Assembly (NCBI GenBank): GCA_964486065.1
Contig: CAZAKN010000001.1
Span: 157,640-221,639, forward strand
Reading direction: 5' to 3'
DNA length: 64,000 bases
Source: an uncultured Gammaproteobacteria bacterium
GTDB taxonomy: Bacteria; Patescibacteriota; Patescibacteriia; UBA11705; JABHMO01
The notes beneath the pieces were generated by a model. That model made no database searches and was not told where the DNA came from. It was given only the letters and a program-made list of their open reading frames with translations. Within the stretch, counting starts at the first letter, position 1, and the number at the start of each line of letters is the position of its first letter. Positions 21,196 through 60,675 of the stretch are shown piece by piece. The position numbers and the translations under genes were made by a program.

Positions 21196-21328
21196 AGCCG
21201 AAAAATCAATCTCCCACTTAAGGAAATCCTAAGATTTACGGAGACAAATTATTTGAAAATTTAACACATTAATATTATCCGGTCAAGTAAATATGGTTAT
21301 TTTTGTCTAAATTTAAACAATATTTCAA

Positions 21329-39582: not shown

Positions 39583-40293
39583 CTACTTTACTCCGCCAAG
39601 CAATTTCACACTGTCTCTGATCAAAGCGTAATTTTTTTCGTACTTCATCCGCATGGGACCAAGTAGCGCGATCACCCCTTTATATTTCCCCAACCGGTAA
39701 CCGGAAACAATTAAACTGCAATCACAACCGAACGGATTATCCGAGCCGATCAAGATTTCGGGTTCTTTAATTTCATTTTTTAAAAAATCGCAAATTTTAC
39801 TGTCCATGTGTTCAATAACCGAAGACAAGTTTATCACCAATTCGGGACTGTTGAACTCCGGCTGAGAAAAAATGTTGGATAATCCCGTATAATAATTATC
39901 ACATTCGGAAAAAGCCACCATCACTCCTTGCCCCGACAATAGTGCCACGGCTTTGGCGAAATTTTTCAATTTCAATCTATCTTCTTGATCAATACTTTGC
40001 AATTCGCGCAAAATCTTGCTTTCTTTGGCTGATAAATCTCTGTCTTTATCCAAATATCTGGACACATAATGTCTATACGCTTTTTCCGTGGGAATTCTAC
40101 CTGCCGAAGTATGTGGCTGAAATATAAATCCATCCCGTTCCAAACCAGCCATATCATTGCGCACGGTAGCCGGACTGACCTGCTCTTTTAAAGACGCCGC
40201 CAAAAGACCCGAAGCGATAGGTTGCGCCTCGGCAATAAACGAATCAATTATTTTTTTGAGAACTTGCTCTTTTCTTTGTTCGCTCATATTCAA
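39583..40293 (-). CDS. hrcA: Heat-inducible transcription repressor HrcA (short form)
   Basis: N-terminal wHTH, position just downstream of CIRCE. Confidence 0.7.
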   Translation of the reverse strand: MNMSEQRKEQVLKKIIDSFIAEAQPIASGLLAASLKEQVSPATVRNDMAGLERDGFIFQPHTSAGRIPTEKAYRHYVSRYLDKDRDLSAKESKILRELQSIDQEDRLKLKNFAKAVALLSGQGVMVAFSECDNYYTGLSNIFSQPEFNSPELVINLSSVIEHMDSKICDFLKNEIKEPEILIGSDNPFGCDCSLIVSGYRLGKYKGVIALLGPMRMKYEKNYALIRDSVKLLGGVK

Positions 40294-40321: not shown

Positions 40322-40348
40322 ATTAGCACTCGTCAAGTTAGAGTGCTA
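40322..40348 (-). promoter_or_regulatory. CIRCE operator (TTAGCACTC-N9-GAGTGCTAA), HrcA binding site upstream of hrcA-grpE-hsp20-dnaK
   Basis: Perfect match to CIRCE consensus 9-N9-9 inverted repeat. Confidence 0.9.
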
Positions 40349-40369
40349 ATCGCTGTAAACTCGGTCAAT

Positions 40370-44292: not shown

Positions 44293-44310
44293 AGTTATAA
44301 AGAACGAAGT

Positions 44311-47300
44311 TTACAAATCAAGATCATTGCAGTCAAACCCGTCAATGGTAACCGCGGCCTTGGTTTGGAAACCTTCCTGAATGGAATAGGGCGTTCCTCC
44401 ACCCAGTTCCACATTGGTCACATTGGTGACCATGCCGTTGTTTTCCGGCCAGGCCAGCCAATCCGTCTCATTGTGGCAATTGTATTCCAGCCACGGGGTT
44501 TCGGTATCTTCATGGTTGCCCCAGACACAGACATCCCGCAAGGAGACAGTCTTAGTGCCGGAGACTTCCGGATCCGAATCCCAGATGTTATCGCCCGTAC
44601 CGAGCTTACCCCATACCAAGTACAAAGTATTGTCGACTGGACAAGTAAAGTGGACGGTCAAGCATCCTTCATCGGTGCGACCGTCGCAGTCATTATCTTC
44701 TCCATCGCAGACTTCCACACCGGGATTAACCGGCGAACAAGCATACTCGCAACCGTTGCGGGGATTTTCGTCAACATCGTAATATCCGCTATTGCAGACA
44801 TCGGGCTGACAACTCCCCTCCTGACACGAGTAGTTCGCGACATTGAGGTACTGCAGATAGGAACAGCTGTTGCCACAGGCGCCACAATGGTTACGGTCAG
44901 TTTGAAGATCAAAGCCTTCATCAACCTCACCGTTACAATCATTGTCCACACCGTCGCAAGCTTCGGTTCCGCCGTTGGTCATGCCACAGGGACCGTATTC
45001 ACAGCCATCCTCGTCATTTCCATTGGCGTCGTAGTAACCGCTGACGCAACTGTTCACCCGACACACACCGCTAACACAACCGGTGGCGGAAGTGTTTTGT
45101 AGCAAAGTGTTGCAGTCATTACCGCAACCGCCACAATTGGCTTCATCCGTGGACTTATTAAAGGTCTCGTCCACCTGACCGTCGCAGTCATCGTCCAAAT
45201 CATTGCAGACTTCCGAGGTCAACGGCATAACCGCGTCCTCACAATCTCCCCAAGTAAAGCCATCCAGACAAACTTGAGTACCAAACTCGCAAATGCCTTG
45301 CTCATTGGCGGGTCCGCAATCACGAACCGCTCCGGCCTGACAAATACAGCCTTCATCCGTCGTCCCGTCGCAATCGTTGTCCACGCCGTCGCAACTTTCC
45401 ACGACCGACATGTCTTCCGATCTTCCGGGCATGGTGGAGCAGGCGTAATCATTCAGACCATCGCACTCAATCACACCAGGTCCGGCGCAAGCACCAAGAC
45501 CGTAACAAAGCGCGCCAACGAAATAATCTTCGTCGGTTTGTCCGTCAAGGTCGTTGTCCTTACCATCGCATAGTTCGGATGCGCCCGGATAAACCGAACT
45601 GTCATTGTCGACCGTATCTCCTTCGCAAATCCGAACTCCATCTTCATCGGAGTCGTTTTCGTTCACGGGAACGGAACCGTCGCAGTCGTCATCCAAACCG
45701 TTGCACAGCTCAGTGGCTTCCGGCATGATCGCATCGAGGCAATCACCCCAGGACATACCGTCCGGCGAACAAGTCTGCGTTCCAAAAACGCAAATCCCTT
45801 GTTCATTGGCGGATCCACAATCGCGAGTTTCGCCGGCTACGCAGGTACAACCTTCGTTCACCGAGCCATCGCAATCATCGTCCAAACTGTTACCACAGCT
45901 TTCCACGCCGGACATATCTTCCGATCCGCCGGGCATGGTGGAACAACGATAGGTGTTGAAAGTAGCGCACTCAATAGTGCCAGCTCCGCAAACACCGATA
46001 CCGTTACAGCTGGCACCGATAAAGAAGTCTTCATCCACCATCCCGTCGCAATCGTTGTCTTGGCCATCGCAGAGTTCCGCGTTACCGGGGAAATTATCCG
46101 GATCCAAGTCATCGCAATCATTATCGCAAACCTTGATTCCGTCTTCATCCTCATCCGCTTCCTCCGCGGGGATAACACCGTCGCAGTCATCATCCAAACC
46201 GTTGCAAGATTCCGCTTCGGCCGGTTCAACCGCTCCGACGCATTCCAACCACGATTTGCCGTCTTCGGCGCAGGTTTCCAAGCCATACTCGCAAGCTCCG
46301 ACATCGGTCGTACCGCATTGGCGAGTGACGCCTGCCACACAAACACACTCGGCATCGTTGATATCAACTAAGCCGTCGCAGTCATCGTCCAATCTGTTAC
46401 CACAAACTTCTTCGGAAGAAGCATCCGCGGAGCCACCGGGCATGGTATCGCACATTACGGTCGTCGTGGTGGCGCATTCCAATACGCCGACACCGCAAGC
46501 ACCCACGCCTTGGCAGGCATTACCGACACCGAACGACTCGTCCACCTGCTCATCGCAGTTGTTATCCAGTCCATCGCAGATTTCAAGCGACAAGGGATTG
46601 ATGGTGGCTTCAGCGTCATTGCAGTCTCCCGCGCAAACGCGAACACCATCTTCATCCTCATCCGCTTCTTCCGCGGGAACGGAACCGTCGCAGTCGTCGT
46701 CCAAACCGTTACAAAGCTCGGATTCTTCCGGCATGACCGCTCCGACACATTCACCCCAACCGTCTCCGGCCGGATTACAGGTTTGCACTCCGAACTCGCA
46801 AATGCCTTGATCCGTTTCCGGACCGCATGCGCGAGTGGAAGCCGGACGACAATTGCAATCATCATCGTTCAAATCAACGAGTCCATCGCAGTCATCATCC
46901 ATACCGTTATCGCAAACTTCCGTGGCGGAAGCATCAGCCGAACCGCCGGGCATGGTATTGCATTGCACGGAATTATCCGTAGCGCATTCCAAAGTCCCCG
47001 GCGTATCACCGCAAGCTCCGATTCCCACGCAAGCCGAGCCGACGAAATATCCTTCGTCCACCTGCTCATCGCAGTTGTTATCAATCCCATCGCAGAGTTC
47101 AAGCGACAAGGGGTTGATGGTGGCTTCAGCGTCATTGCAGTCTCCCGCGCAAACGCGAACACCGTCTTCATCCTCATCCGCTTCCTCCACGGGAATAACA
47201 CCGTCGCAGTCATCATCCAAGCCATTGCAAGATTCCGCTTCGGCCGGTTCAACCGCTCCGACACATTCCAGCCACGATTTGCCGTCTTCGGCGCAGGTTT

Positions 47301-49146
47301 CCACGCCATATTGACACTCACCGACATTGGTCGTGCCACATTGGCGGGTCTGCCCGGGGAAGCAAATGCAACCGTTGTTGACTACACCGTCGCAATCGTC
47401 GTCCAATTCATTGCCACAATCTTCGGCAATGGATTCATCAGCCGAACCTCCCGGTTCAGTGGAGCAACGCGTTTCGGTTTCACCGGCGCATTCCACCACC
47501 CCGACGCCACAAGCGCCGAGACCTTCGCAAGGCTCGCCAATCCCGAATCCCTCGTCAATCTGATCGTCGCAGTTATTATCCACGCCGTCACAGATTTCCA
47601 AGACATCGGGGTTGATGGTCGCCAAAGCGTCATCGCAATCACCTTCACAGATGCGGAAACCGTCTTCGTCCTCATCCGCTTCGTTGGCCGGGATTTGATC
47701 ATCACAATTGTTATCCAGCCCGTCGCAGATTTCCTCCGCTTCCGGATGGATCAACTTGTTCAGATCATTGCATTCCTCGCAAGCCAGAAATCCGTCTTGA
47801 TCAAGGTCAACTTCCGTTTCCAGCTTTTCGCCGTCACAGTTATTGTCCTTGCCGTCGCAAATTTCTTCGGCTTCCGGGAAAACAGCCGGATCCTGATCAT
47901 CGCAGTCTCCCGCGCAATTCAGGATGCCGTCCTCGTCTTGATCAACTTCATCCTCCGGCACTTGGCCGTCGCAGTCGTCGTCAAGACCATTGCATTCCTC
48001 GGCTTCCAAAGCCTGGCTTTCGGAGCCACCGGGCATGGTGGAGCAAATGACTTGCTCGGCATTGTCGGGATCGCATTCGTAAACGCCTTCACCGCAAATA
48101 CCTTGACCGGTGCAAACCTCTCCGACTTCATAGTCTTCGTCGGTTTCACCGTCGCAATCATTGTCCTTACCGTCGCACAGTTCAGCTTCGGCGGGCATAA
48201 CCGCGCCTTCACACTCACCCCATTCCCAAGTTTGATCCTCGGTTTGGAGGCAAGTCTGAATACCGAATTCGCATTCCCCTTCTGCAGTCTCGGGACCGCA
48301 ACGCCGAATATCATTCGGCTGACAAGTGCACTCTTCCTCGTCGGTTTCACCGTCGCAATCATTGTCGCGATCGTCCTCGCAAATCTCCGTCGGATTATCA
48401 GGATCGTCCACATAGCAGACATCCTCACCTTCCGGATATTCGCATCCGTCTTCCGGATCCAGATTGGCATCATGCTTACCACTTTCACAAGCGGTAATCT
48501 CGCACAAGCCTTCTTCGCAAACAAATTCTGCGACTTGCAGACCATCAAACTCAGCCTGACAGCTGTAGCCACATTCTCCGCAGTTTTCCGGATCCTCGGC
48601 CAGATTAAACTCTTCGTCAATCTCGCCATCGCAATCATTGTCCACGCCGTCACAGGTTTCCGTCTCCGGATCCACATTGCCTATGCAATTGGTCCATTGA
48701 CCCTGTTCATCGCAAACACGAAACCCCATTTTGCAAGGGGAAGTGTTTTCCGCGTCGGCGGAACCGCATTCCTCTCGCTCTCCGGGCGAACACTGTCCAT
48801 CCGGAATCACTTCGTCTTCATCACCATCCACCAAGTCGGCATAATCAAGCCAACCATCGTAGAGACAGTAACTGCCTCTACAACTGAAACCGGGTTCGGA
48901 ATAAACATCCAATCCCGCTCTCAGGCAATCTTGATCGGTTTCGCAACCGGTCACGATACAAGTTCCTGACAAGCAAGACGCCTGACTGATGGTACAGTCC
49001 GACGGCGTATCGCACTTCTCCGGGAAATTGACGAGTCCGGATTGATCTCCGTCCTCATCCGCTTTTTTCCCGCCGTTGCCGTCATCACATCCGGCGCCAT
49101 ACAGCGCGAAAAGCGTGATGAAAAAAATGGCCATCAATTGCTTCAT
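44311..49146 (-). CDS. Giant secreted Cys-rich repeat lipoprotein (about 1611 aa). It has about 20 MopE-like putative metal-binding repeats C.G.DNDCDG..DE interleaved with Cys-knot-like modules, and a distinct C-terminal domain. True start is ATG at 49146 (track ORF starts at an upstream TTG)
   Basis: Lipobox LYGAGC. Recurring CDG[VLK]DNDCDG..DE and C.G.G.C.G..EC motifs. RBS aaggagagaatcATG. Confidence 0.75.
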   Translation of the reverse strand: MKQLMAIFFITLFALYGAGCDDGNGGKKADEDGDQSGLVNFPEKCDTPSDCTISQASCLSGTCIVTGCETDQDCLRAGLDVYSEPGFSCRGSYCLYDGWLDYADLVDGDEDEVIPDGQCSPGEREECGSADAENTSPCKMGFRVCDEQGQWTNCIGNVDPETETCDGVDNDCDGEIDEEFNLAEDPENCGECGYSCQAEFDGLQVAEFVCEEGLCEITACESGKHDANLDPEDGCEYPEGEDVCYVDDPDNPTEICEDDRDNDCDGETDEEECTCQPNDIRRCGPETAEGECEFGIQTCLQTEDQTWEWGECEGAVMPAEAELCDGKDNDCDGETDEDYEVGEVCTGQGICGEGVYECDPDNAEQVICSTMPGGSESQALEAEECNGLDDDCDGQVPEDEVDQDEDGILNCAGDCDDQDPAVFPEAEEICDGKDNNCDGEKLETEVDLDQDGFLACEECNDLNKLIHPEAEEICDGLDNNCDDQIPANEADEDEDGFRICEGDCDDALATINPDVLEICDGVDNNCDDQIDEGFGIGEPCEGLGACGVGVVECAGETETRCSTEPGGSADESIAEDCGNELDDDCDGVVNNGCICFPGQTRQCGTTNVGECQYGVETCAEDGKSWLECVGAVEPAEAESCNGLDDDCDGVIPVEEADEDEDGVRVCAGDCNDAEATINPLSLELCDGIDNNCDEQVDEGYFVGSACVGIGACGDTPGTLECATDNSVQCNTMPGGSADASATEVCDNGMDDDCDGLVDLNDDDCNCRPASTRACGPETDQGICEFGVQTCNPAGDGWGECVGAVMPEESELCNGLDDDCDGSVPAEEADEDEDGVRVCAGDCNDAEATINPLSLEICDGLDNNCDEQVDESFGVGNACQGVGACGVGVLECATTTTVMCDTMPGGSADASSEEVCGNRLDDDCDGLVDINDAECVCVAGVTRQCGTTDVGACEYGLETCAEDGKSWLECVGAVEPAEAESCNGLDDDCDGVIPAEEADEDEDGIKVCDNDCDDLDPDNFPGNAELCDGQDNDCDGMVDEDFFIGASCNGIGVCGAGTIECATFNTYRCSTMPGGSEDMSGVESCGNSLDDDCDGSVNEGCTCVAGETRDCGSANEQGICVFGTQTCSPDGMSWGDCLDAIMPEATELCNGLDDDCDGSVPVNENDSDEDGVRICEGDTVDNDSSVYPGASELCDGKDNDLDGQTDEDYFVGALCYGLGACAGPGVIECDGLNDYACSTMPGRSEDMSVVESCDGVDNDCDGTTDEGCICQAGAVRDCGPANEQGICEFGTQVCLDGFTWGDCEDAVMPLTSEVCNDLDDDCDGQVDETFNKSTDEANCGGCGNDCNTLLQNTSATGCVSGVCRVNSCVSGYYDANGNDEDGCEYGPCGMTNGGTEACDGVDNDCNGEVDEGFDLQTDRNHCGACGNSCSYLQYLNVANYSCQEGSCQPDVCNSGYYDVDENPRNGCEYACSPVNPGVEVCDGEDNDCDGRTDEGCLTVHFTCPVDNTLYLVWGKLGTGDNIWDSDPEVSGTKTVSLRDVCVWGNHEDTETPWLEYNCHNETDWLAWPENNGMVTNVTNVELGGGTPYSIQEGFQTKAAVTIDGFDCNDLDL
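45420..48050. repeat. About 510-bp near-identical tandem DNA repeats (about 5-6 copies) inside the giant gene. Each unit encodes ...MPGGS(A/E)D.S...DDDCDG...C.YG.ETC...
   Basis: Long identical nt stretches, for example 46601-46700 vs 47121-47220. The MPGGS-encoding segment recurs at about 45430, 45935, 46440, 46950, 47455 and 48040. Confidence 0.75.
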
Positions 49147-49164
49147 GATTCTCTCCTTTGTTGT

Positions 49165-49181
49165 CCCCAAAAATTTTGGGG
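49165..49181 (-). promoter_or_regulatory. 5'-UTR palindrome CCCCAAAAATTTTGGGG immediately upstream of the RBS of the giant gene
   Basis: Near-perfect inverted repeat. A homologous CCCCCTAAATTTTGGGGGG sits in the same position in gene 53823-54857. Confidence 0.55.
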
Positions 49182-49342
49182 AGATTTAGGAAAACAGTAA
49201 AAGTAAACAAATTGTCAAACTTCACAAACTCTCATTCAAGGGGTTTTACAAATGAACAAATACTTTATTCATTCATAAAAATCCTTGAAGATCATACCTG
49301 CAACTTACCACGATTACTAATAAAAATAAATATTAAGACACA

Positions 49343-49388
49343 ATTTGCAGACATTTAATTTTAGCAAAAATAAGAACTTTTGTCAAGT
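49343..49388 (-). promoter_or_regulatory. Candidate promoter of the giant gene (minus strand TTGACA-17-TAAAAT), giving an about 195-nt 5'-UTR
   Basis: Plus strand tgtcaa at 49383-49388 and atttta at 49360-49365. Confidence 0.45.
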
Positions 49389-49417
49389 GTTGTTATTTAC
49401 ACATTTTTAGCTAATTT

Positions 49418-49450
49418 TAAATAAAAATTCCCCGAGACTGATAGTCTCGG
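49418..49450 (-). terminator. Terminator of gene 49463-51400 (ttccccgagact-gat-agtctcggggaa)
   Basis: 12-bp stem, A-run before on plus strand. Confidence 0.7.
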
Positions 49451-49462
49451 GGAATGATGAGT

Positions 49463-51400
49463 TTAAGGGGTTGGTAATTTTACCCAAATCCCTCTGTCAA
49501 CGCGGGGGTCATCAACGATTTCCTCCGCATTGACCCGGTCTCCATTGTCTTTTCGGTAAAATACCTCCTGAACATGGAAACCCGTCCTCTGGAAGTTGAA
49601 ATGGCTGGAGAAGTGTACTTCAACATACACCACTCCCCCCGAAACATCCTCCAAGTTGAGAGGAATCTGGAAGCTTTTCCCATCTTCCATAATAGGAATA
49701 CCGTCATACATAACAGCATCCCCATCTTGGTTAAAATGGGAAATCACGCCCCTGAGCATTCCTTCCGGAAGACCATCAGGAATATCTCTCATGACAACTC
49801 CGATATTTCCCGAAAGAGGGAAATTATCGGCGACGGGTTGCTCCTCCTCTGAGGCACCATCGTCACCATCGGAATCATCACCATCCTCGTCGTCTTCCTG
49901 CTCGTCGCCATCTGAGATATCGCCATCTTCTTGATCAACCACTTGCTGACAAGTGGTTTCCTCAAAAGTGGCAACAAATCCCAATCCGTGAACATGGTTG
50001 ATGTTTTCCACATCCACGGAAAGAGGACATTCTTCATGAACGAACATTACCTCTTGCAACTGAACGGCTTGAGGATCTGACCAGTTCTCTTGGTCATACA
50101 GCGCGTCAAACCAAATTCTTTTTTGGATAACGCGGCTAAGATCCAGCGACAAAGAGACACATCCGTCTCCATCCAATGCCAACCGGACTTCCTGTTCTCC
50201 ATTGTCAGAAATATATCTGACGGAGACATTATTACAGGAGTGCGGTCCACAGTGGCTCCAAACGGCGCAAATCGTGAGCTCTCCAGCTCCACTTTCATAA
50301 ACATCCTGTTCATCGCCGTCGGTATCGCCATCTTCATCATCGCCGTCCGTGTCGTCGTCTTCATCATCGCCGTCGGTGTCACCATCGGTATCGCCATCCA
50401 TGTCACCGTCTTCATCATCGCCGTCGGTATCACCATCGGTATCGCCATCCATGTCGCCATCTTCATCATCGCCGTCTTCTTGAGGCCGTTCACCTTCCAA
50501 GCAAACGCCTTGGTCACACCAGTAACCATTCCGGCAATCAAAGTCATCCTGACAAGTGGCGAGACATTCACCTTCCTCGCAGACTTCGTTGTCCGCGCAT
50601 AGGGATTTGAACTCGCAGAGATTTCCTTCTCCGCACCTTGCCTCATAGCAAGTACCGAGTTCCATCCCTTCCGGGGGAGTCAAGCACTCGTGATCGTATG
50701 TGCAGGACTGCTTTCCGGCACAACGACCGGTGTGCAGATCGCAATACTGGCTGTTCAGACAAGACTCGGGGATTTCCTCCCCCGTCTCATCCGTACATGG
50801 CGCGTACTGCAAACATGCACCCTCATCTCCACAGTAGAAACCGTGGAGGCAGTCCTCATAACTTCCACATGCATTTGCCTCTTCGCAAATGTTTTCCCTA
50901 CGGTCACACTGCTCCGTCAAGAAACAGTCAGTGTGCTCGCCACAACGACCTTCTTGCCATTGCGTCACGCATTCTTCATGAATGCATACATATTCCTGAC
51001 CTTCCTGCTCAGGCTCACCACAGTCGGAGGCTTCCTCGCACTCCGGCTCATACACGACACAAGTACCCATATAGCAGTACTTGCCCTCGGCGCAATCACG
51101 ATTACTGCGACAAGTTTCGTCGCCATCCGTGATGTCGTCGCCATCCGTGTCGCCGTCGGTCGGCTCATCCCCATCGGAGATGTCGCCGTCCGTGTCGCCG
51201 TCGGTCGTGGAAATCTGCTCAGCGCAGAATCCCGCACTCGTGCAGTACTGCCACCGCGCGCAATCGGCGTCGGTTTCGCACTGCGTTTCTTTGGCGTCCG
51301 AGGATTCTTCTTCCTCGGCTTTTTTCTTGTCGCCACAACCGGCAACAAAACCCGCGAAAGCCACCATCAGCATAAGCGCAAAAATCAGGTTCTTCTTCAT
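49463..51400 (-). CDS. Secreted Cys-rich, acidic DGD-repeat lipoprotein (645 aa), paralog of 51596-53677. Conserved C-terminal YVEVH...DDPRVDRG domain
   Basis: Lipobox FVAGCGD, (DGDTDGDDEDGDM)x2, Cys-rich module, RBS aaggagacagagtaATG. Confidence 0.7.
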   Translation of the reverse strand: MKKNLIFALMLMVAFAGFVAGCGDKKKAEEEESSDAKETQCETDADCARWQYCTSAGFCAEQISTTDGDTDGDISDGDEPTDGDTDGDDITDGDETCRSNRDCAEGKYCYMGTCVVYEPECEEASDCGEPEQEGQEYVCIHEECVTQWQEGRCGEHTDCFLTEQCDRRENICEEANACGSYEDCLHGFYCGDEGACLQYAPCTDETGEEIPESCLNSQYCDLHTGRCAGKQSCTYDHECLTPPEGMELGTCYEARCGEGNLCEFKSLCADNEVCEEGECLATCQDDFDCRNGYWCDQGVCLEGERPQEDGDDEDGDMDGDTDGDTDGDDEDGDMDGDTDGDTDGDDEDDDTDGDDEDGDTDGDEQDVYESGAGELTICAVWSHCGPHSCNNVSVRYISDNGEQEVRLALDGDGCVSLSLDLSRVIQKRIWFDALYDQENWSDPQAVQLQEVMFVHEECPLSVDVENINHVHGLGFVATFEETTCQQVVDQEDGDISDGDEQEDDEDGDDSDGDDGASEEEQPVADNFPLSGNIGVVMRDIPDGLPEGMLRGVISHFNQDGDAVMYDGIPIMEDGKSFQIPLNLEDVSGGVVYVEVHFSSHFNFQRTGFHVQEVFYRKDNGDRVNAEEIVDDPRVDRGIWVKLPTP

Positions 51401-51480
51401 TACTCTGTCTCCTTGCGGGCAACCATGCCCGCTGCTGTTAAGGTTTTTCCGAAATGAAATTTCTGAAAGAACGATATATT

Positions 51481-51509
51481 ATTCTATCAAATTTTGGCAT
51501 TTTTGTCAA
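51481..51509 (-). promoter_or_regulatory. Consensus-like promoter (minus strand TTGACA-17-TAGAAT) for gene 49463-51400
   Basis: Plus strand attcta...17 nt...tgtcaa. Confidence 0.55.
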
Positions 51510-51555
51510 TAGTACTTAGCAAAATTAGTGCATTTGGAAATTTTTGCCTAAATTT

Positions 51556-51580
51556 AAACAAAAACCCGTGCGTTTTACGC
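51556..51580 (-). terminator. Terminator of gene 51596-53677 (cccgtgcg-tttta-cgcacggg)
   Basis: 8-bp stem with flanking A/T runs. Confidence 0.7.
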
Positions 51581-51595
51581 ACGGGTTTGAATTAT

Positions 51596-53677
51596 CTAAT
51601 CAAACTCGCAATAGTCCCCTCTATCAACACGATCATCCAAGATCACTTCAGCTTGAATAGTTTCTCCATTCTGCAAGCCATAAATGACCTTAATCGGAGC
51701 TATGCCCGAAGGATTGAAGTTCCAATTTGGAGTGGAGTGTATTTGCACATACACCACACTGCTTAACGCTTGCTCCAAATCCAAATCATGTGAAAAACAC
51801 TTACCGTTGATCGGGATATTGTCATGAATGACAGAATGACCATCCATGTCAAAGTAAGAAAAATATCCCTTCCATCCTTCTTCGTTAATCGGATAACACG
51901 CGATAAGCGTATTCGGAGGAGCGCTCATGGGAAGGTGCTGATCTTCATCGCCGTCTTCAGCGATATCTTCGTCGCCATCCGGCTCCACAGGCTCATGGCA
52001 AGTGAAATCTTCAAACTCCAGAACATAGCCCCATTCGTCCCAAGAATACCGGACATCTTCCGGCGGAACGACAATAACGCAGTCTTCCATACGATATTCA
52101 GCCGACACGATGGTCGGTTTGGGCCAAATCCAGTTGTTCCCCGTATGCGCGTCAAATCTGAAACGCGCATTCCACACATCATCCAAATCCACTTGATGAG
52201 CAAAACAATTTCCTTGTGTCGGAATATCCAACTCCTGTAGCCCCCCCTCATACAAAGTATAAATCAAGGAAACTTGTTCATATTGCGAAAACCTTTCAGA
52301 GGCACAAACACGCAAAACACCATCTTCCCAATCATCGTCTTCAACGAGATCTTCGTCACCATCAACGGTGATATCCTCATCTCCATCTTCAGCGATATCT
52401 TCGTCGCCATCCGGTTCCGGCTCAGGCAAACACTCGCCTTCCTCGCAACCGTAATAGCATGGTTGACTCTCAACCCAACATACACCTTCGACACAATTAG
52501 GCATGTGATGAACCAACATAGCCTCTTGTGAACCGTCGGAGGATGGGACACAGATCCAACTCTCAATGCAGTCCTGATCCGACATGCATTCTGGTTGCGA
52601 ATTGCAAGCTCCGTTGGAGCAACCGAACTCACAAATTTCTATTAGAATGTTGCAGTAATGATCCTCTTGAACACAGACACCGGACGGGTATACCCGAACA
52701 TTTCCTGTCAAACACTCGGCAGGCAAATTTGTTTCCGAGCAATCGTTGTCGGTTTCACAATAATGCCAATCCGCACGATCAGCCCTTACACACCGACCGT
52801 CCTGACAGACATCACCGGTTGACGGATCACCGTCCACACAATCCACATCTATCTCGCACTCGTTGCCGGGAACGCATTCACCATTCTCGCAAATCTCACC
52901 GTCATCACAGTGGTTACGATATTCACAAACAAGATCAGCACAACGATAATCATAACAAGTACCGTAATCCAATCCTTCCGGCAACTCGCTACAATCATTA
53001 TCACTTTCACAAGCGGAAAGTTTTTCGCAACGACCGGTTTCCTGATTACAATATTGCCCGTTAAAGCAGGCTTCCGCGATTTCCACTCCGTCTTCATTAA
53101 CACAAACATTGTATTGTTTGCATTGATTGACTTCCTGGTCGCAAAAATAACCCTCTCTGCAATCAAGATTTTCCTCGCACTCTCGGGCCGATTCGCAAAA
53201 TCCTTGGCGGTTGCATTCTTCGTACGGGAGGCAATCCACATTATTGTGGCATTCACCCGAACCTTCCATGCATTGGCAATCAACGCAATTCAAGTCTTCT
53301 CTGCAATCCTCCGCGGAGCGGCACTCACATTCAGTGCAACGACTCGCGATACAAAGCTCTCCTGTTTTGCATTGGAAATCATAGCGACAATACCCTTGAC
53401 GATTGCTCGGTTCGGGGTCATCACCGTCTTCCACTTGTTCGTCACCATCAGGGCTGATTTCCGCGTCCAGATCACCGTCCACTTGTTCACTCTCCGTCTC
53501 CGGTACGCAGAAACCATCCGCGCAAAAGAATCCATCATCACATTGCTCATCGGACGAGCAGAGACTGATGGTGAACTCTTCGTCACCATCCAAGATTTCA
53601 CTTTTTTTTCCATCCTCACCGCAACCGGCGAAATAGATGGCAAAAAGCAACAGGACAACAAACTTAAACTGTTTCAT
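51596..53677 (-). CDS. Secreted Cys-rich, acidic repeat lipoprotein (693 aa), paralog of 49463-51400. It carries a duplicated EPDGDEDIAEDGDED segment and the same C-terminal domain
   Basis: Lipobox FAGCGEDG, collinear Cys pattern with the previous gene, C-terminal YVQIH..DDRVDRG. Confidence 0.7.
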   Translation of the reverse strand: MKQFKFVVLLLFAIYFAGCGEDGKKSEILDGDEEFTISLCSSDEQCDDGFFCADGFCVPETESEQVDGDLDAEISPDGDEQVEDGDDPEPSNRQGYCRYDFQCKTGELCIASRCTECECRSAEDCREDLNCVDCQCMEGSGECHNNVDCLPYEECNRQGFCESARECEENLDCREGYFCDQEVNQCKQYNVCVNEDGVEIAEACFNGQYCNQETGRCEKLSACESDNDCSELPEGLDYGTCYDYRCADLVCEYRNHCDDGEICENGECVPGNECEIDVDCVDGDPSTGDVCQDGRCVRADRADWHYCETDNDCSETNLPAECLTGNVRVYPSGVCVQEDHYCNILIEICEFGCSNGACNSQPECMSDQDCIESWICVPSSDGSQEAMLVHHMPNCVEGVCWVESQPCYYGCEEGECLPEPEPDGDEDIAEDGDEDITVDGDEDLVEDDDWEDGVLRVCASERFSQYEQVSLIYTLYEGGLQELDIPTQGNCFAHQVDLDDVWNARFRFDAHTGNNWIWPKPTIVSAEYRMEDCVIVVPPEDVRYSWDEWGYVLEFEDFTCHEPVEPDGDEDIAEDGDEDQHLPMSAPPNTLIACYPINEEGWKGYFSYFDMDGHSVIHDNIPINGKCFSHDLDLEQALSSVVYVQIHSTPNWNFNPSGIAPIKVIYGLQNGETIQAEVILDDRVDRGDYCEFD

Positions 53678-53794
53678 GATATTCTCCTTTTTTTTGATTG
53701 TTTAAAGGAACAAACTAACATTATACTGTAACAAATTTTTAATCTTTTGGCAAGTGCCAAAGGTGATTAATTAAAACACAATAATTAAAAAACC

Positions 53795-53821
53795 ATGCGG
53801 TCAGACCGCATGGTTTGTTTT
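53795..53821. terminator. Bidirectional terminator (ccatgcggtc-aga-ccgcatgg)
   Basis: 9-bp stem flanked by A5 and T7. Confidence 0.7.
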
Positions 53822-53822
53822 T

Positions 53823-54857
53823 TTAAAAGATGCAATAAACCCCTCTATCAACGCGAGGGTCATCCGTGAGCTCCCCAACCTTAACGGAATTTCCGTCATT
53901 GGTCTGAACCTTCATGACGGGAATTCCGGTTCTACGATAGTTGTACTTGGCTCCTTGGTGGAGCTCCACATAAACAGCTCCGTCCAAGGCTTCTTCCAAA
54001 AAGAATGGAAACGAAAATTTGTTTCCATCCAATGGGATACCATCATACTGAACCGAATCCCCATTCATGTCAAAGTACGAAAAGTACCCTGCATAGGCAC
54101 CCGGTGGAGTATCACAAGGCAAATCCACCCAAACCTCTATCTCGTAGAGGTCTGTCCAGTTGCCCGGTTCAGGCCAACAGGCCAACGATTCTCCCGAATC
54201 CCCCGGATCTTCTTCCTCGTCAGTCGCCGGTTCTTCACCGGGATCATCCATTTCTTCGCCCGGGTCCTCTTCGGGATCCTCACCGGGCTCTTCCTCGTCT
54301 TCCGGATCATCCAGATTCTCACCGGCGGTATCCTGGTCTTCCCAGTCTTCCACCGGTTCCTCGCCTTCCGGCTCGGAACTGTCACCGGGCATATCACCGT
54401 CTTCGGGTTCATCACCATCGGGAATATCGCCGTCTTCAACGGCGTTGCCCCAGCCACGAGGCAATTCGCTTTCATCCACGCAGGTACCGAGGATTTGCTC
54501 CTCTCCCAGCCCGGATTTTCCCTTCAAGGACATCTGGAACTTTTCTTCCAGATTGTCCACGCAGACCATGCCGGCGGGGCATTCGGTGATGACGACAGGC
54601 GGATCCTGGAAATGGATCACGCCGTTCATGTCTCTGCCATATTCCATACGGCAGATTTCGGGAACGCAACGCCGCCCCTCGTATCCATCGTAAAAACCTT
54701 CCAGACATATCCAGCCCGGAAGCTCACATTCCGCGTCGGTGAAACACGTCTGCGGACCATCATCCGTGGAGATCGTCCCCATGTCCACCTCGGTGGCACA
54801 ACCGGTAGCAAACATGAGCATTGTAATTATACACACAATAACTTTAACTTTCTTCAT
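53823..54857 (-). CDS. Secreted Cys-rich acidic-repeat lipoprotein (345 aa). N-terminal module shared with 55052 and 56203 genes, C-terminal module shared with 49463 and 51596 genes. Start at ATG 54857
   Basis: Lipobox FATGC, PRGWGNAVEDGDIPDGDEPEDGD segment, C-terminal YVELH..DDPRVDRG, RBS aaggagagaataATG. Confidence 0.7.
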   Translation of the reverse strand: MKKVKVIVCIITMLMFATGCATEVDMGTISTDDGPQTCFTDAECELPGWICLEGFYDGYEGRRCVPEICRMEYGRDMNGVIHFQDPPVVITECPAGMVCVDNLEEKFQMSLKGKSGLGEEQILGTCVDESELPRGWGNAVEDGDIPDGDEPEDGDMPGDSSEPEGEEPVEDWEDQDTAGENLDDPEDEEEPGEDPEEDPGEEMDDPGEEPATDEEEDPGDSGESLACWPEPGNWTDLYEIEVWVDLPCDTPPGAYAGYFSYFDMNGDSVQYDGIPLDGNKFSFPFFLEEALDGAVYVELHQGAKYNYRRTGIPVMKVQTNDGNSVKVGELTDDPRVDRGVYCIF

Positions 54858-54876
54858 TATTCTCTCCTTTGTTTGT

Positions 54877-54895
54877 CCCCCCAAAATTTAGGGGG
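54877..54895 (-). promoter_or_regulatory. 5'-UTR palindrome CCCCCTAAATTTTGGGGGG upstream of the RBS of gene 53823-54857
   Basis: Homolog of the 49165-49181 element. Confidence 0.5.
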
Positions 54896-55018
54896 AAGTT
54901 GAAGTTCTTTGCTTTTTTCAAAGAGCAATTTGATGTTTAAAATTAACAAATTTTTTAATCTTTGTCAATAGCCATTGATTATTCCTTGAAATATCACCTA
55001 AATTTAAATAAAAAAGCT

Positions 55019-55043
55019 CCGTTGGATTTCCAACGGAGCGTTG
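55019..55043. terminator. Terminator (ctccgttgga-tt-tccaacggag)
   Basis: 10-bp stem, T-runs on both strands. Confidence 0.7.
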
Positions 55044-55051
55044 TTTTTTTG

Positions 55052-56035
55052 TTAAAGCTCTCCCAAAGGATAGCCATCACCTTCTTTGTAAGCGCCGATG
55101 TTCATCGGTTCTCCGTTGAAGAATGCGACCACCGGAGGATTATGCCTTCCTTCCCAGCGACTACCGTTTGTCAGATCGGTAGCATAGTTTCCAAGCGAAC
55201 AGTCCGCTTCCGTCAATTCCCAGGAAACGCACTCCCACTCGGCATGATCAATCCCCCAATCATCTTCCATGCATTCACTGAAAGAACACATTCTGTATGA
55301 TGGGTGATCGTTCATGATTTGCCCCCAGCCTCCTTCTTTACAGGAGTCAAAGACCAAACTCCCGTAATAGGACTCCACGATATACTGCCAACAAATGATG
55401 AACCGTCCCGTTTGGAAATGCTCGTCACCATCGGGAATATCTCCGTCTTCGGGCTCGTCGCCGTCTTCCGGTTCATCACCGTCTTCCGGTTCATCACCGT
55501 CTTCAGGTTCGTCACCGTCTACCGGTTCTTCCCGGTCTTCCACCGGTTCTTCGCCTTCCGGCTCGGAACCGTCATCGTCGGGCATATCGCCATCCCCCTC
55601 GGCGTTTCCCCAGCCGTTTTTAATGTCTCCTTCGTACACGCAACGGCCCAGCTTTTCCTCGCGTCGTAGGCCCATGGATTCGGCCAATGCCTCGGCTTCC
55701 TCCTCGGTGAAGCTTCCGTACTCACCTTCCACTTCGTCCAGCGATTCCAGCTGGACACACTCCCAAGCTTCCGGGCAGGCGCTAGTCTTCGGCGATTCAT
55801 ACTGAACCTGTCCGTTTTGACTAATCGAAAATGTCAACCTGCAAAAATCATACAGGCATCTTTTTTCTTCCGGGTTTTCTTTGCTAAGACCGCAAATATA
55901 CCCTTCTTCGCATTCCTTATCTTGAATGCAGATCTCCGGACTTTCGTCAGTTTTCACCGTTCCGAGATCGACGACCGTCTGGCAACCCATTACCCCGACG
56001 ACGATCAAAAACATCAACAATATACTGTAACGCAT
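55052..56035 (-). CDS. Secreted Cys-rich acidic-repeat lipoprotein (328 aa) with (EPEDGD)x5 repeat and a YYGSLVFDSC C-terminal module shared with 56203 gene
   Basis: Lipobox VMGCQT, RBS aaggaggacgccATG. Confidence 0.65.
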   Translation of the reverse strand: MRYSILLMFLIVVGVMGCQTVVDLGTVKTDESPEICIQDKECEEGYICGLSKENPEEKRCLYDFCRLTFSISQNGQVQYESPKTSACPEAWECVQLESLDEVEGEYGSFTEEEAEALAESMGLRREEKLGRCVYEGDIKNGWGNAEGDGDMPDDDGSEPEGEEPVEDREEPVDGDEPEDGDEPEDGDEPEDGDEPEDGDIPDGDEHFQTGRFIICWQYIVESYYGSLVFDSCKEGGWGQIMNDHPSYRMCSFSECMEDDWGIDHAEWECVSWELTEADCSLGNYATDLTNGSRWEGRHNPPVVAFFNGEPMNIGAYKEGDGYPLGEL

Positions 56036-56160
56036 GGCGTCCTCCTTTTTTTTGGGATAAAAATTTTTTGAAAAGAACAATTTATATTATCAAATAATCT
56101 TATTTTTGTCAAGTATTATGCCATTTTTAGTGTTTTTGTAAAATATTTTTTAATATTAAA

Positions 56161-56190
56161 AAATCCGCTCCATTTGGAGCGGATTATGGT
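56161..56190 (-). terminator. Terminator (atccgctcca-tt-tggagcggat)
   Basis: 10-bp stem, A5 before on plus strand. Confidence 0.7.
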
Positions 56191-56202
56191 TGTTTAAAGA
56201 AC

Positions 56203-57072
56203 TTACTCGTCGCCGGGCGCGACGGGCTGTAGATACCAACCCAGATCGTATTCGCCGACGGTCCCCAAGACCTCGTTGAAGGCCACCGACAGCGGCTTTT
56301 TGCTTTCGCCAAGCCAATTGGACCCGTTGGTCAGCGCTACCTTAAAGTTGCCGGATGCACAGGCCTCCGCATCAACGAACCACGCCACACAGTTGCCCAT
56401 ATGGCTGTAAGCCCCGTCTGCGTCTTGCCACTGAGTGTAGCCCGCCGACTCGCAGGAGTCGAAGACCAAGCTACCGTAGTAGCCGGCTGGGATAGCATCC
56501 CAGCACACTTCAATGGCATACTCCTCCGGTAACTCAATCGGCGTTCCGGGATCTTGAGTATCCGGAACATCCCCGTCTTCAGGCTCGTCACCATCGGGGA
56601 TATCACCGTCTTCCGGTTCATCACCGTCTTCGGGTTCGTCGCCATCGGGGATATCGCCGTCTTCAACGGCGTTTCCCCACCCACGAGGCAGGTGCGAGAT
56701 TTTCTCACACTGACCGAGCAACTCGGACTCACTCAGTCCGAGCGTTTCCGAATGATCTTCCTGATCCTCCATGTCCAACACCACGCAAGTGTATTCTTCC
56801 GGACAAGCAGACACTTCCGCCAGATCATCCTGGACTACGCCATGAATGTCTTGCGTGTACTCCAACACGCAAAACGGCGTGCACCGTTTGCCTTCCAGAT
56901 CGCTATAATAACCTTCGGCGCAAATCTGCGCCACTCCACATGTTTCATCCGTCACGCACCGTTCCGGACTTTCGTCCGTTTTGATGGTGCCTAACTCTGC
57001 TTCCGTGTGACAGCCCGCCGTAAGTCCGGCGAAAACCATCACCAACACGATCAAAAAGATCATTCGGTTCAT
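56203..57072 (-). CDS. Secreted Cys-rich acidic-repeat lipoprotein (290 aa), paralog of 55052-56035. Start at ATG 57072
   Basis: Lipobox LTAGC, RBS aaggaggaacccATG, shared PRGWGNAVEDGDIPDGDEPEDGD. Confidence 0.65.
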   Translation of the reverse strand: MNRMIFLIVLVMVFAGLTAGCHTEAELGTIKTDESPERCVTDETCGVAQICAEGYYSDLEGKRCTPFCVLEYTQDIHGVVQDDLAEVSACPEEYTCVVLDMEDQEDHSETLGLSESELLGQCEKISHLPRGWGNAVEDGDIPDGDEPEDGDEPEDGDIPDGDEPEDGDVPDTQDPGTPIELPEEYAIEVCWDAIPAGYYGSLVFDSCESAGYTQWQDADGAYSHMGNCVAWFVDAEACASGNFKVALTNGSNWLGESKKPLSVAFNEVLGTVGEYDLGWYLQPVAPGDE

Positions 57073-57176
57073 GGGTTCCTCCTTGCAACTCCGAAAATCG
57101 GGCTGCGCTAGAATTTTCAAAAAGACCACCTCTGGATTATTCCAGCTTAAAAGCTTAACTCATTAAGCCCTTAAGT

Positions 57177-57213
57177 TGAAGGGAAATTGCATCTTGCAAT
57201 TTCCCGTTTGAGG
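57177..57213 (-). terminator. Terminator (gggaaattgca-tct-tgcaatttccc)
   Basis: 11-bp perfect stem. Confidence 0.65.
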
Positions 57214-57216
57214 TTA

Positions 57217-57666
57217 TTAATTAACCTCTACGGTGTTCTTCAGAACACCCGTCGCGGCCAAAATGCCGAGAACGATTCCCGTCACCCCGCCAATCACCAA
57301 GACGGAGATTGTGGCAGCACCCGGACCGGTGTGCGCCCAATTTTTCACCTTTTGTTGTTCGGCGAGCACCACGCCGGTGCTGTCGTTCACTTGAATGGCG
57401 TTGGCGTCAAACTTCGTTTCATTCACGAGAACCGTGGCGCCGTCGGCGTCCAGCCTTTTGTTCTGTTTGGCTGTGGCGGGGGCTTTTTCCTCCGCTTTCG
57501 CCGGTGGTTTGGGAATGGGTCCCTTGACCGCCACGGTTTTGGTCGCCGGGGCCTTGGGACCTTCTTCTGGCGTCGCTTGAATCTTGTTCTCCCCGGCCAT
57601 GGCCGGGACGACGATCATCATGTTGGCGAAAGCCAACATCAGCAAAATAACGAAAAACTGTTTCAT
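57217..57666 (-). CDS. Small secreted protein with Pro/Ala/Lys-rich linker and C-terminal HTGPG + glycine-zipper TM segment (possible C-terminal anchoring or sorting signal)
   Basis: Signal peptide, PKPPAKAEEKAPATAK linker, C-terminal ATISVLVIGGVTGIVLGILAATGV. Confidence 0.5.
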   Translation of the reverse strand: MKQFFVILLMLAFANMMIVVPAMAGENKIQATPEEGPKAPATKTVAVKGPIPKPPAKAEEKAPATAKQNKRLDADGATVLVNETKFDANAIQVNDSTGVVLAEQQKVKNWAHTGPGAATISVLVIGGVTGIVLGILAATGVLKNTVEVN

Positions 57667-57807
57667 GTCCATGTCTCCTTGCAGGCAAAACGCCCGCTGT
57701 AAGGGGTGGGTAAACTTTCAATGATCTTCGATATCTGAACTTAATAAAATCAGTTGATTTTGTCAAGTTTCCTCTTCTGAAAAAACGATTAATCATTTTT
57801 TCGGAAA

Positions 57808-57838
57808 AAGGCGCGAGGCGAAGCTTCGCCTCGCGCGT
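57808..57838 (-). terminator. Terminator (ggcgcgaggcgaagc-ttcgcctcgcgcg)
   Basis: Long GC-rich palindrome, A-run before on plus strand. Confidence 0.7.
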
Positions 57839-57845
57839 ATTCTTT

Positions 57846-58514
57846 TTAATGAGCTTCCAGCTGGATGGTTCCTGCCGGAACATGCGTGACGAACTTTCTC
57901 GTCTTCGCCGGATCCAGCTTGATCAACGGAAGTCCCTCTTCCTGGAACCTTGCGTCTATCTCGGAATGGATCGTAGCGATGTCCTCATCCGTCAAGACCA
58001 CTTCTTCCGCCGGAAGACGGATCTTTTCAACTCCACCGACTGATGCCGTTGCCAGCACCGTCGGAAATCCTCCGTTTCCTTCCTTTGTGCCGGCATTGCG
58101 GTGGTGAGAACGATTTTTCACCAAACCTCTGCCACGCCAACGCTTACGCGCCGGCTCGCATACCTTCTCGGCATCCACGAACTGGCACCAGGTATTGCAC
58201 TGGTTTGAACTACGGTAGCCCCTGAAACAAGACTCCGCGCCTCCGAGGCACTCGCAACATTCCTTGGGCTTACACTCTTCACTGCCGAAGCAGTAGAGGT
58301 AGCCCTCCAAGACTTCTTTTTCCAGGCCGGCCGTGGCCAAGTTCGTTTCCAGTTCGGCGATCTCCATGTTCGCGACTTTCAACTGTCGCGAAACTTGATC
58401 TGATCTCCGCTCGGCGTCCGTGGTCTGTCCGATCTGGTGGAAGTAAGCCACCAGCACCAAAACCATGATTGCCAAAACGAAGTACAATCCTGTTTTCGAA
58501 GTTTTCTCGCTCAT
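57846..58514 (-). CDS. N-terminally anchored coiled-coil protein with Cys-rich C-terminal domain (start MSEKTSK at 58514, RBS ggagga)
   Basis: TM helix, CFGSEECKPKECCECLGG..C..C Cys cluster. Confidence 0.5.
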   Translation of the reverse strand: MSEKTSKTGLYFVLAIMVLVLVAYFHQIGQTTDAERRSDQVSRQLKVANMEIAELETNLATAGLEKEVLEGYLYCFGSEECKPKECCECLGGAESCFRGYRSSNQCNTWCQFVDAEKVCEPARKRWRGRGLVKNRSHHRNAGTKEGNGGFPTVLATASVGGVEKIRLPAEEVVLTDEDIATIHSEIDARFQEEGLPLIKLDPAKTRKFVTHVPAGTIQLEAH

Positions 58515-58837
58515 GTTTTCCTCCAGGAAAATGTTATTAAAATTTTTCAAAAAACTGTTTATTGGTTTTTACCCAATGCCAAAACTTAGCATAATCAAAA
58601 AAAAGTGTCAAGTACACTTTTGTCATTGATTTCAAGGCTCTGTTCGGTCAATTATTGAGAAAAATCCGAATAACTCTCCAAGCTTATCACTATGTTTTTT
58701 TATGTCAAATTAAACCAATATTTATTCAGATATAAAACACATCTCTAATCAGTCACATAATGAATATTTATACTAATTTTAGATAAAAAAATGGCTACGC
58801 AAATATTTACATAGCCATAAAATCGTTTTTTTGACAA

Positions 58838-60550: not shown

Positions 60551-60639
60551 GATCATCTCCTTTGTAAGGTACCTGCGATTTGTTTTCACACTTAAAGCAT
60601 TGTAGCAATTTAACAATATACGACAAGATTGTCAATCCA

Positions 60640-60675
60640 CAAAAAAGCCCTTCACCAAAGGCGAAGGGCTTTTTT
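60640..60675. terminator. Bidirectional terminator (aagcccttcacc-aaa-ggcgaagggctt)
   Basis: GC stem flanked by A6 and T6. Confidence 0.65.

Follow-up and report, generated by a model that had tools for sequence, protein, structure and literature searches.

Genes A and B, two lipoprotein genes of one gene island, share a GC-clamped hairpin in their 5' leaders, directly before the ribosome binding site (RBS), and this pair of hairpins is real and non-random. The element is probably functional at the RNA level. In kind it is most likely ordinary, namely a leader hairpin beside an RBS, found in one uncultivated species. Its role is proposed tentatively: the leader hairpin may stabilise the mRNA and/or insulate the RBS, and may have spread between paralogues by duplication and gene conversion, a proposal to which we give not quite an even chance.

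The shared hairpin of genes A and B

The window, meaning the whole 64-kb stretch of DNA that was analysed, contains a lipoprotein gene island at 44.3-60.6 kb (44300-60650), with a G+C content of 0.46-0.55 vs 0.38-0.42. The island genes have the same orientation throughout, and nearly all of them have their own TTGACA-17-TAnAAT promoter and their own terminator. An AGGAG Shine-Dalgarno (SD) sequence is present in all island genes; most of the approximately 39 other genes in the window have no recognisable SD. Gene A (44311-49146, minus strand) encodes a predicted lipoprotein of 1611 aa with a lipoprotein-type signal peptide, and almost all of this protein consists of Cys-rich repeats (PF11617, E = 3.5e-117) of the MopE-type "putative metal-binding" kind. 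Gene B (53823-54857, minus strand) encodes an acidic, Cys-containing predicted lipoprotein of 344 aa, which belongs to no Pfam family and is a paralogue of four neighbours. By BLASTP, the five island genes 49463-51400, 51596-53677, B, 55052-56035 and 56203-57072 are paralogues of one another. Neither a candidate regulator gene nor a recombinase was recognised in the island.

The remainder of the window is bacterial housekeeping in content, with ClpB/C-like, PcrA, LigA, GlyRS, MreB and hrcA-grpE-dnaK-dnaJ genes. A perfect CIRCE element, TTAGCACTC-N9-GAGTGCTAA (40323-40349), overlaps the promoter that precedes an hrcA-like gene (39583-40293, minus strand), and grpE-, dnaK- and dnaJ-like genes follow downstream. 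Upstream of gene 19918-21177, also outside the island, the hairpin UUUUUCGGCuuuGCCGAAGGA (around 21185-21205, minus strand; -8.9 kcal/mol) contains the AAGGAGG SD of that gene and is a candidate SD-sequestering structure.

A preliminary description of this DNA had placed a GC-clamped A/T palindrome in the 5'-UTRs of genes A and B just before the RBS, and both copies were confirmed there. The strand needs correction: both genes are on the minus strand, and in the mRNA the element reads CCCCAAAAUUUUUGGGG (A) and CCCCCUAAAUUUUGGGGGG (B). When folded as RNA, as that description had suggested, the palindromes of both genes form stable stem-loops. The gene A hairpin, UCCCCAAAAUUUUUGGGGA (= CCCCAAAAUUUUUGGGG; 49164-49182, minus strand), has 8 bp and a 3-nt loop, ends at -18 from the AUG and folds with -9.8 to -10.5 kcal/mol. 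The gene B hairpin, UCCCCCUAAAUUUUGGGGGGA (= CCCCCUAAAUUUUGGGGGG; 54876-54896, minus strand), has 9 bp including one U·G pair and a 3-nt loop, ends at -19 and folds with -13.2 to -13.9 kcal/mol. As DNA, the palindrome of A is perfect and that of B is imperfect: the deviating position forms a U·G wobble when read as mRNA, but an A·C mismatch when read as antisense.

The hairpins of A and B are followed by a near-identical CA-rich spacer, by AAGGAGAGAAU and then by AUGAAG. Written as mRNA, the leader of A ends with ...AAAUC-UCCCCAAAAUUUUUGGGGA-CAACA-AAGGAGAGAAUC-AUGAAG and that of B with ...CAACU-UCCCCCUAAAUUUUGGGGGGA-CAAACA-AAGGAGAGAAUA-AUGAAG. In gene A, the segment 49147-49163 (minus strand) holds the single-stranded, CA-rich spacer CAACA, the SD AAGGAG (49153-49158) and GAGAAUC up to the start codon; in gene B, the segment 54858-54875 (minus strand) holds the spacer CAAACA, the SD AAGGAG (54864-54869) and GAGAAUA up to the start codon. 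The core AAGGAG thus begins 5-6 nt past the stem in both genes, with the 3' end of the stem at -18/-19 from the AUG, and a strong RBS, AAGGAGAG, lies close downstream of the hairpin, 6 nt ahead of the AUG. The palindrome had been described as lying about 2 nt upstream of GACAA; this needs correction, since the stem takes in the G and A of GACAA as its final bases, with a U-A closing pair, and no 2-nt gap exists.

The pattern CCCC-W9-GGGG with at most one mismatch is confined to two places in the 64 kb, the leaders of A and B. It gives 3 overlapping matches compared with 0.25 expected, and 3 matches were reached in 0 of 100 shuffles. The block common to A and B runs from UC(U/C)CCCC through AUGAAG, approximately 46-49 nt, with no similarity beyond either edge. 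The rarity of the pattern within the window and the sharp ends of the shared block indicate that the element is real and not due to chance. When the isolated A and B elements were compared with their shuffles, z was approximately -2.3. A dispersed palindrome of the REP or MITE type was considered and rejected, as just two copies are present in the 64 kb and both stand at the same distance from the start codon.

Each of the two hairpins lies between the terminator of the upstream gene together with a sigma-70-type promoter on one side and the start codon on the other. For gene A, the terminator of the upstream gene is at 49427-49455, and the predicted promoter, TTGACA-17-TAAAAT with TG (49358-49386, minus strand; 11/12 consensus positions), is approximately 170 nt upstream of the hairpin. 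For gene B, a terminator is found upstream of the leader at 55016-55039, and the predicted promoter, TTGACA-17-TAATTT with TG (54940-54968, minus strand), is approximately 37 nt upstream of the hairpin; this promoter was spotted by eye and lies under the threshold of the promoter scan. The promoters of gene 51596-53677 and of B are similar. Both A and B promoters are consensus matches only, from which transcription is presumed. The location of the hairpins downstream of these predicted sigma-70-type promoters places them within the 5'-UTRs. The distance from hairpin to promoter differs about 4-fold between A and B, and the distance from hairpin to start codon is fixed. A nearer promoter for gene A, which would make the hairpin 5'-terminal, was rejected: the TTGACA at about 49217 lacks a usable -10, and an indel in a second strain alters its distance from the hairpin. 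ECF-type and sigma-54-type promoter readings were checked by eye and also rejected.

Other leader hairpins and the second strain

The preliminary description had also noted a different hairpin, GCGGGC..GCC(C/U)GC, fused to AAGGAGACA at genes 49463-51400 and 57217-57666, and this was correct. At gene 49463-51400, the hairpin GCGGGCAUGGUUGCCCGC (GCGGGC-AUGGUU-GCCCGC; 51415-51432, minus strand) abuts AAGGAGACA and ends at -15. At gene 57217-57666, the hairpin GCGGGCGUUUUGCCUGC (GCGGGC-GUUUU-GCCUGC, with one G·U; 57681-57697, minus strand) abuts AAGGAGAC and ends at -15 as well. At gene 56203-57072, the hairpin GCAGCCCGAUUUUCGGAGUUGC (GCAGCCCGA-UUU-UCGGAGUUGC; 57085-57106, minus strand) abuts AAGGAGG and ends at -13. 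The different GC hairpins of these three island genes, ending at -13 to -15, therefore adjoin AAGGAG directly. Unrelated stem sequences (CCCC/GGGG and GCGGGC/GCCCGC) thus occupy the same place before the start codon. Two island lipoprotein genes, 51596-53677 and 55052-56035, have no leader hairpin.

The frequency of such structures was compared between the island and the rest of the window. A compact leader hairpin, defined by a folding energy of -9.8 kcal/mol or better and a 3' end between -19 and -11 relative to the start codon, was found in 5/9 island genes and in approximately 2/39 other window genes (Fisher p = 0.0013), where the five hairpins count as only 2-3 independent cases because the genes that carry them are paralogues. 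A descriptor that uses no annotation (a stem of 6 bp or more, 4 or more of them G-C pairs, then 0-10 nt, AGGAG, 4-10 nt, and a start codon) was applied to both strands (128 kb of strand). It found 4 sites, all four of them island leaders, with a shuffle mean of 0.5.

One other strain was available for comparison (ENA ERZ1757541 contig_11916, here locus L003), which is 98-99% identical; an exact-protein look-up showed only these two strains in the data. The gene order of L003 is identical to that of the window. The hairpins of A and B are unchanged in L003; there, one C of the A spacer is replaced by A, and an indel of 5 nt is found in the leader immediately upstream. In the hairpin of gene 49463-51400 (51415-51432 of the window, compared with approximately 13600 in L003), the stem is kept and the loop changes from AUGGUU to GUUU. 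In the leader of gene 57217-57666 (57681-57745 of the window, compared with 7150-7256 in L003), approximately 45 nt are replaced by a module identical to the module of gene 49463-51400 in the window, by which the loop changes from GUUUU to AUGGUU and the G·U pair becomes G-C. This replacement indicates gene conversion between paralogous leader modules. The persistence of the stems in L003 is compatible with selection on the stem, although such persistence does not prove selection. The two large paralogous lipoproteins (49463-53677 of the window, compared with 11167-15182 in L003) have 693 vs 757 aa and 645 vs 515 aa. The length differences between the strains are indels in repetitive acidic segments, and these lipoproteins appear to be rapidly varying surface proteins.

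Conserved 5' non-coding and signal-peptide modules are a feature of the Mycoplasma vlp, vsp and vsa families. The island resembles these families as a cluster of paralogous, repeat-containing lipoprotein genes with a conserved leader block, and in its strain differences in repeat length and leader modules. However, the island lacks a poly(A) phase-variation tract and a recognisable recombinase, none of its genes is inverted, and its similarity extends over only about 50 nt and does not cover the signal peptide. A site-specific recombination site like Mycoplasma vis/vrs, by which promoters or 5' ends would be shuffled, would fit a conserved element located between promoter and coding region in a variable cluster of paralogous lipoprotein genes, as well as the differences between strains in leader modules and gene lengths. 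This explanation is nevertheless extremely unlikely. The genes are all oriented alike, and each has a promoter and a terminator of its own; the island has no recognisable recombinase; and the strain differences resemble short conversion tracts, not rearrangements, with the gene order identical. Core sites of tyrosine or serine recombinases have a spacer, which is absent from the 8-1-8 palindrome.

Relatives of the element and of the proteins were searched for in several collections. In Rfam, the whole window gave no match at the gathering threshold, and the A leader gave chance-level matches only, at E up to 10. A word-based search of 5.8 G clustered proteins with protein B returned only the protein itself (99%) and one paralogue from the same species, and an exhaustive HMMER search of 1.84 G representatives with a profile of the shared N-domain returned the same two proteins and four marginal matches only. 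No related locus was found in the GTDB species genomes. A scan of the genome collection for CCCC-W8(N)-GGGG-N4-9-AAAGGAGA gave 35 matches in unrelated taxa, none of them in the context ACAA..GGAGAGAAU; this number is close to our chance estimate, and the majority of the matches are another repeated palindrome in which T comes first. A scan of metagenomes, a collection in which the source organism is not represented, for the stemless SD context (ACAA-N1-2-AAAGGAGAGAATNATGAA) gave 60 matches, none with the hairpin. Judged by public data, the module is confined to this species. In alignment, MAFFT set the three module sequences out of structural register, and the three near-identical sequences contain no covariation.

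The T-first repeat, ..AAUCCCCCCUnnnC-CCCCTTTATAAAAGGGGG.. (CCCCTTT..AAAGGGG), is intergenic, often in several adjacent copies, and is unrelated to the A/B element. It was found at loci L019, L028, L030, L031, L032, L034, L036 and L037, in MAGs of many unrelated phyla (Deltaproteobacteria, cyanobacteria, Zixibacteria, TA06, Dehalococcoidia).

RNA sense of the element and competing identities

The imperfect positions of the island stems are, without exception, G·U pairs in the mRNA sense and A·C mismatches in the antisense. The sense fold is better than the antisense fold by 2.5 kcal/mol in B, 4.0 kcal/mol in gene 57217-57666 and 4.3 kcal/mol in gene 56203-57072, and the two folds are equal in A, where the palindrome is perfect. 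We consider an RNA-level element of the mRNA more likely than a site in double-stranded DNA, because the G·U pairs occur only in the mRNA sense and the position is tied to the start codon and not to the promoter. The same conclusion is drawn from the spacing between the C-block and the G-block, which differs by 1 nt (A, 9 nt; B, 8 nt), and from the stems in L003, which persist while the loops change.

The preliminary description had offered a protein-binding DNA palindrome as another option. An operator for a dimeric transcription factor, acting as a roadblock downstream of the promoter, would account for a GC-clamped A/T palindrome of 17-19 bp that is perfect in A and common to two genes of one cluster. 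Such an operator is very unlikely here, since the sites are distant from the promoters, approximately 170 nt (A) and 37 nt (B) past the predicted starts with no fixed relation to the promoter, and since the half-site spacing is not constant. The imperfection in B, which is tolerated as an RNA wobble, is a mismatch in the symmetry of a DNA site. Other paralogues have different, unrelated hairpins at the same place, and no regulator gene was recognised nearby.

The accessibility of the SD was predicted from the folds. The probability that the SD is unpaired is 0.80 in B, 0.77 in gene 56203-57072 and 0.04 in A. In gene A only, UUUUCCU (49188-49194) is predicted to pair with the SD, AGGAGAG (49152-49158), in a separate, weak 7-bp pairing, and the CCCC hairpin would then form the tip of a larger stem. 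The 5' arm was also considered as a conserved anti-SD: in A its UCUCC might pair with GGAGA, but nothing comparable exists in B, and the idea was dropped as a feature of both leaders. A long imperfect hairpin of approximately 24 bp in two segments lies midway along the gene A leader, at 49232-49293 (minus strand). It folds with -23.8 kcal/mol in the mRNA sense vs -15.6 kcal/mol in the antisense; owing to the more stable fold in the mRNA sense it is probably an RNA structure, and it could be a processing site. An Rfam microRNA match at this hairpin was of chance level only.

An RNA thermometer had also been suggested for the palindrome. Thermometers such as ROSE, fourU and the prfA leader are likewise 5'-UTR hairpins near the start codon. 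They hide the SD and/or the AUG within a weak stem that contains mismatches, whereas here the SD lies outside a strong, GC-clamped stem, and for this reason the element is not regarded as a thermometer. The stem likewise leaves out the AUG, the SD of B is predicted to be unpaired, and no Rfam thermometer model matched. Intrinsic terminators and attenuators also have a short, GC-clamped stem-loop in the leader. This identity was rejected because no U-tract follows the stem: the stems are followed by ACAAC in A and ACAAAC in B (sequences ACAACAAAGG and ACAAACAAAGG, respectively). No antiterminator is evident, and the terminator scan reports neither site.

A translational operator or an RNase site, both also offered in the preliminary description, is conceivable. 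The two hairpin types could be operators for a trans-acting post-transcriptional regulator, an RNA-binding protein or sRNA, with the two sequence types corresponding to two co-regulated sets of lipoprotein genes. The members of each pair have in common not just the fold but also the sequence, including the flanks UC.CCCC..GGGGACAA and (C)CUUA(A)CAGC..GCAAGGAGACA; translational operators act at just such sites beside the SD; and the alternative pairing can close the SD of gene A. Regulation of this kind is nonetheless judged improbable. Gene conversion explains the sequence identity equally well and has direct evidence from the comparison of strains. The island contains no recognisable candidate regulator gene, the loops, which are the usual recognition surface, vary between alleles of the GC type, and closure of the SD is absent in B. 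In an extended version, the hairpin types would be address labels by which separate regulators (protein or sRNA) switch subsets of lipoproteins, and conversion of the leader module of some 50 nt, such as that observed at gene 57217-57666, would move genes between classes. This version is highly doubtful; if true, it would mean a recombination-based rewiring of surface-protein expression in an uncultivated, possibly host-associated bacterium.

It may also be that the hairpins have no selected function, the shared block being a remnant of duplication and gene conversion among paralogous gene units and the hairpins its passengers. The island is a paralogous family in which the promoters of gene 51596-53677 and B are also alike. 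The leader module of gene 57217-57666 was exchanged in L003 for one of the 49463-51400 type, the element is absent from all other organisms searched, and the lipoprotein genes 51596-53677 and 55052-56035 do without a hairpin. We consider this explanation rather unlikely, as two or three unrelated hairpin sequences are found at an equal distance from the start codon, the imperfect positions are in every case G·U when read as mRNA, loops and flanks change while stems are kept, and hairpins are commoner in the island than in the rest of the window.

A possible role in message stability

When placed at the 5' end or close to it, a hairpin and/or a strong RBS with its bound ribosome stabilises an mRNA and shields long stretches of it downstream; this holds for E. 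coli and, more markedly, for B. subtilis. The accepted function of such leader stabilisers is protection from 5'-end-dependent decay (PMC3997798, PMC7509114, PMC5737220). RNase Y cuts AU-rich single strands beside secondary structure, preferably 5' of it (PMC3997798). In the hbs mRNA, a structured leader is cleaved by RNase Y, and RNase J1 is blocked by ribosomes at a strong SD (PMC5737220). In the B. subtilis delta-ermC mRNA, a stem-loop too near the SD leads to lower stability, according to the account of Sharp and Bechhofer 2005 cited in PMC7509114.

According to the proposal that the hairpin stabilises the message and/or insulates the RBS, the palindromes would be RNA stem-loops in the 5' leaders of two individually transcribed surface-lipoprotein genes. 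The GC-clamped hairpin, an unstructured CA-rich spacer, a strong SD and AUG AAG would together form a module whose role is to raise and stabilise expression. The long AU-rich leader would be cleaved, or attacked from its 5' end, until decay halts at the hairpin. The result would be a hairpin-capped, ribosome-loaded mRNA in which the hairpin is the 5' boundary of the stable, processed message. The hairpin would also prevent pairing of the SD with the variable upstream leader. The near-identity of the modules of A and B would come from duplication and gene conversion of the paralogous leaders. We infer this effect of the hairpin on decay or translation, and propose a processed, ribosome-loaded mRNA, because the island leaders combine an AU-rich leader, a GC-clamped hairpin and a strong SD as in the established cases.

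The leaders of E. coli ompA and of B. subtilis aprE and hbs likewise combine a stable leader hairpin with a strong SD, in genes of abundant exported proteins. Those stabilisers act at the 5' end or a few nt from it, whereas the hairpins described here are internal to the predicted leader and beside the SD; they have no sequence similarity to the ompA, aprE and hbs stabilisers. Because the classical stabilisers are 5'-terminal and the hairpins are approximately 37 and 170 nt from the predicted starts, a processing step must be assumed. A simple role in keeping the SD open fits poorly, because the SD of gene A is predicted to be paired. Two further points weigh against a stabilising role: the hairpins of the GC type abut the SD directly, and the evidence comes from one species and two strains, with no independent covariation.

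If the proposal that these hairpins stabilise mRNA and/or insulate the RBS is true, no new class of mechanism would be involved. The finding would help to annotate such islands, and the module, if validated, would be a portable expression module. It would provide a further example of modular leaders, composed of hairpin, spacer and strong SD, which serve a species-specific family of surface lipoproteins, and these leader modules would be exchanged among paralogues in a genome that is otherwise mostly without a recognisable SD.
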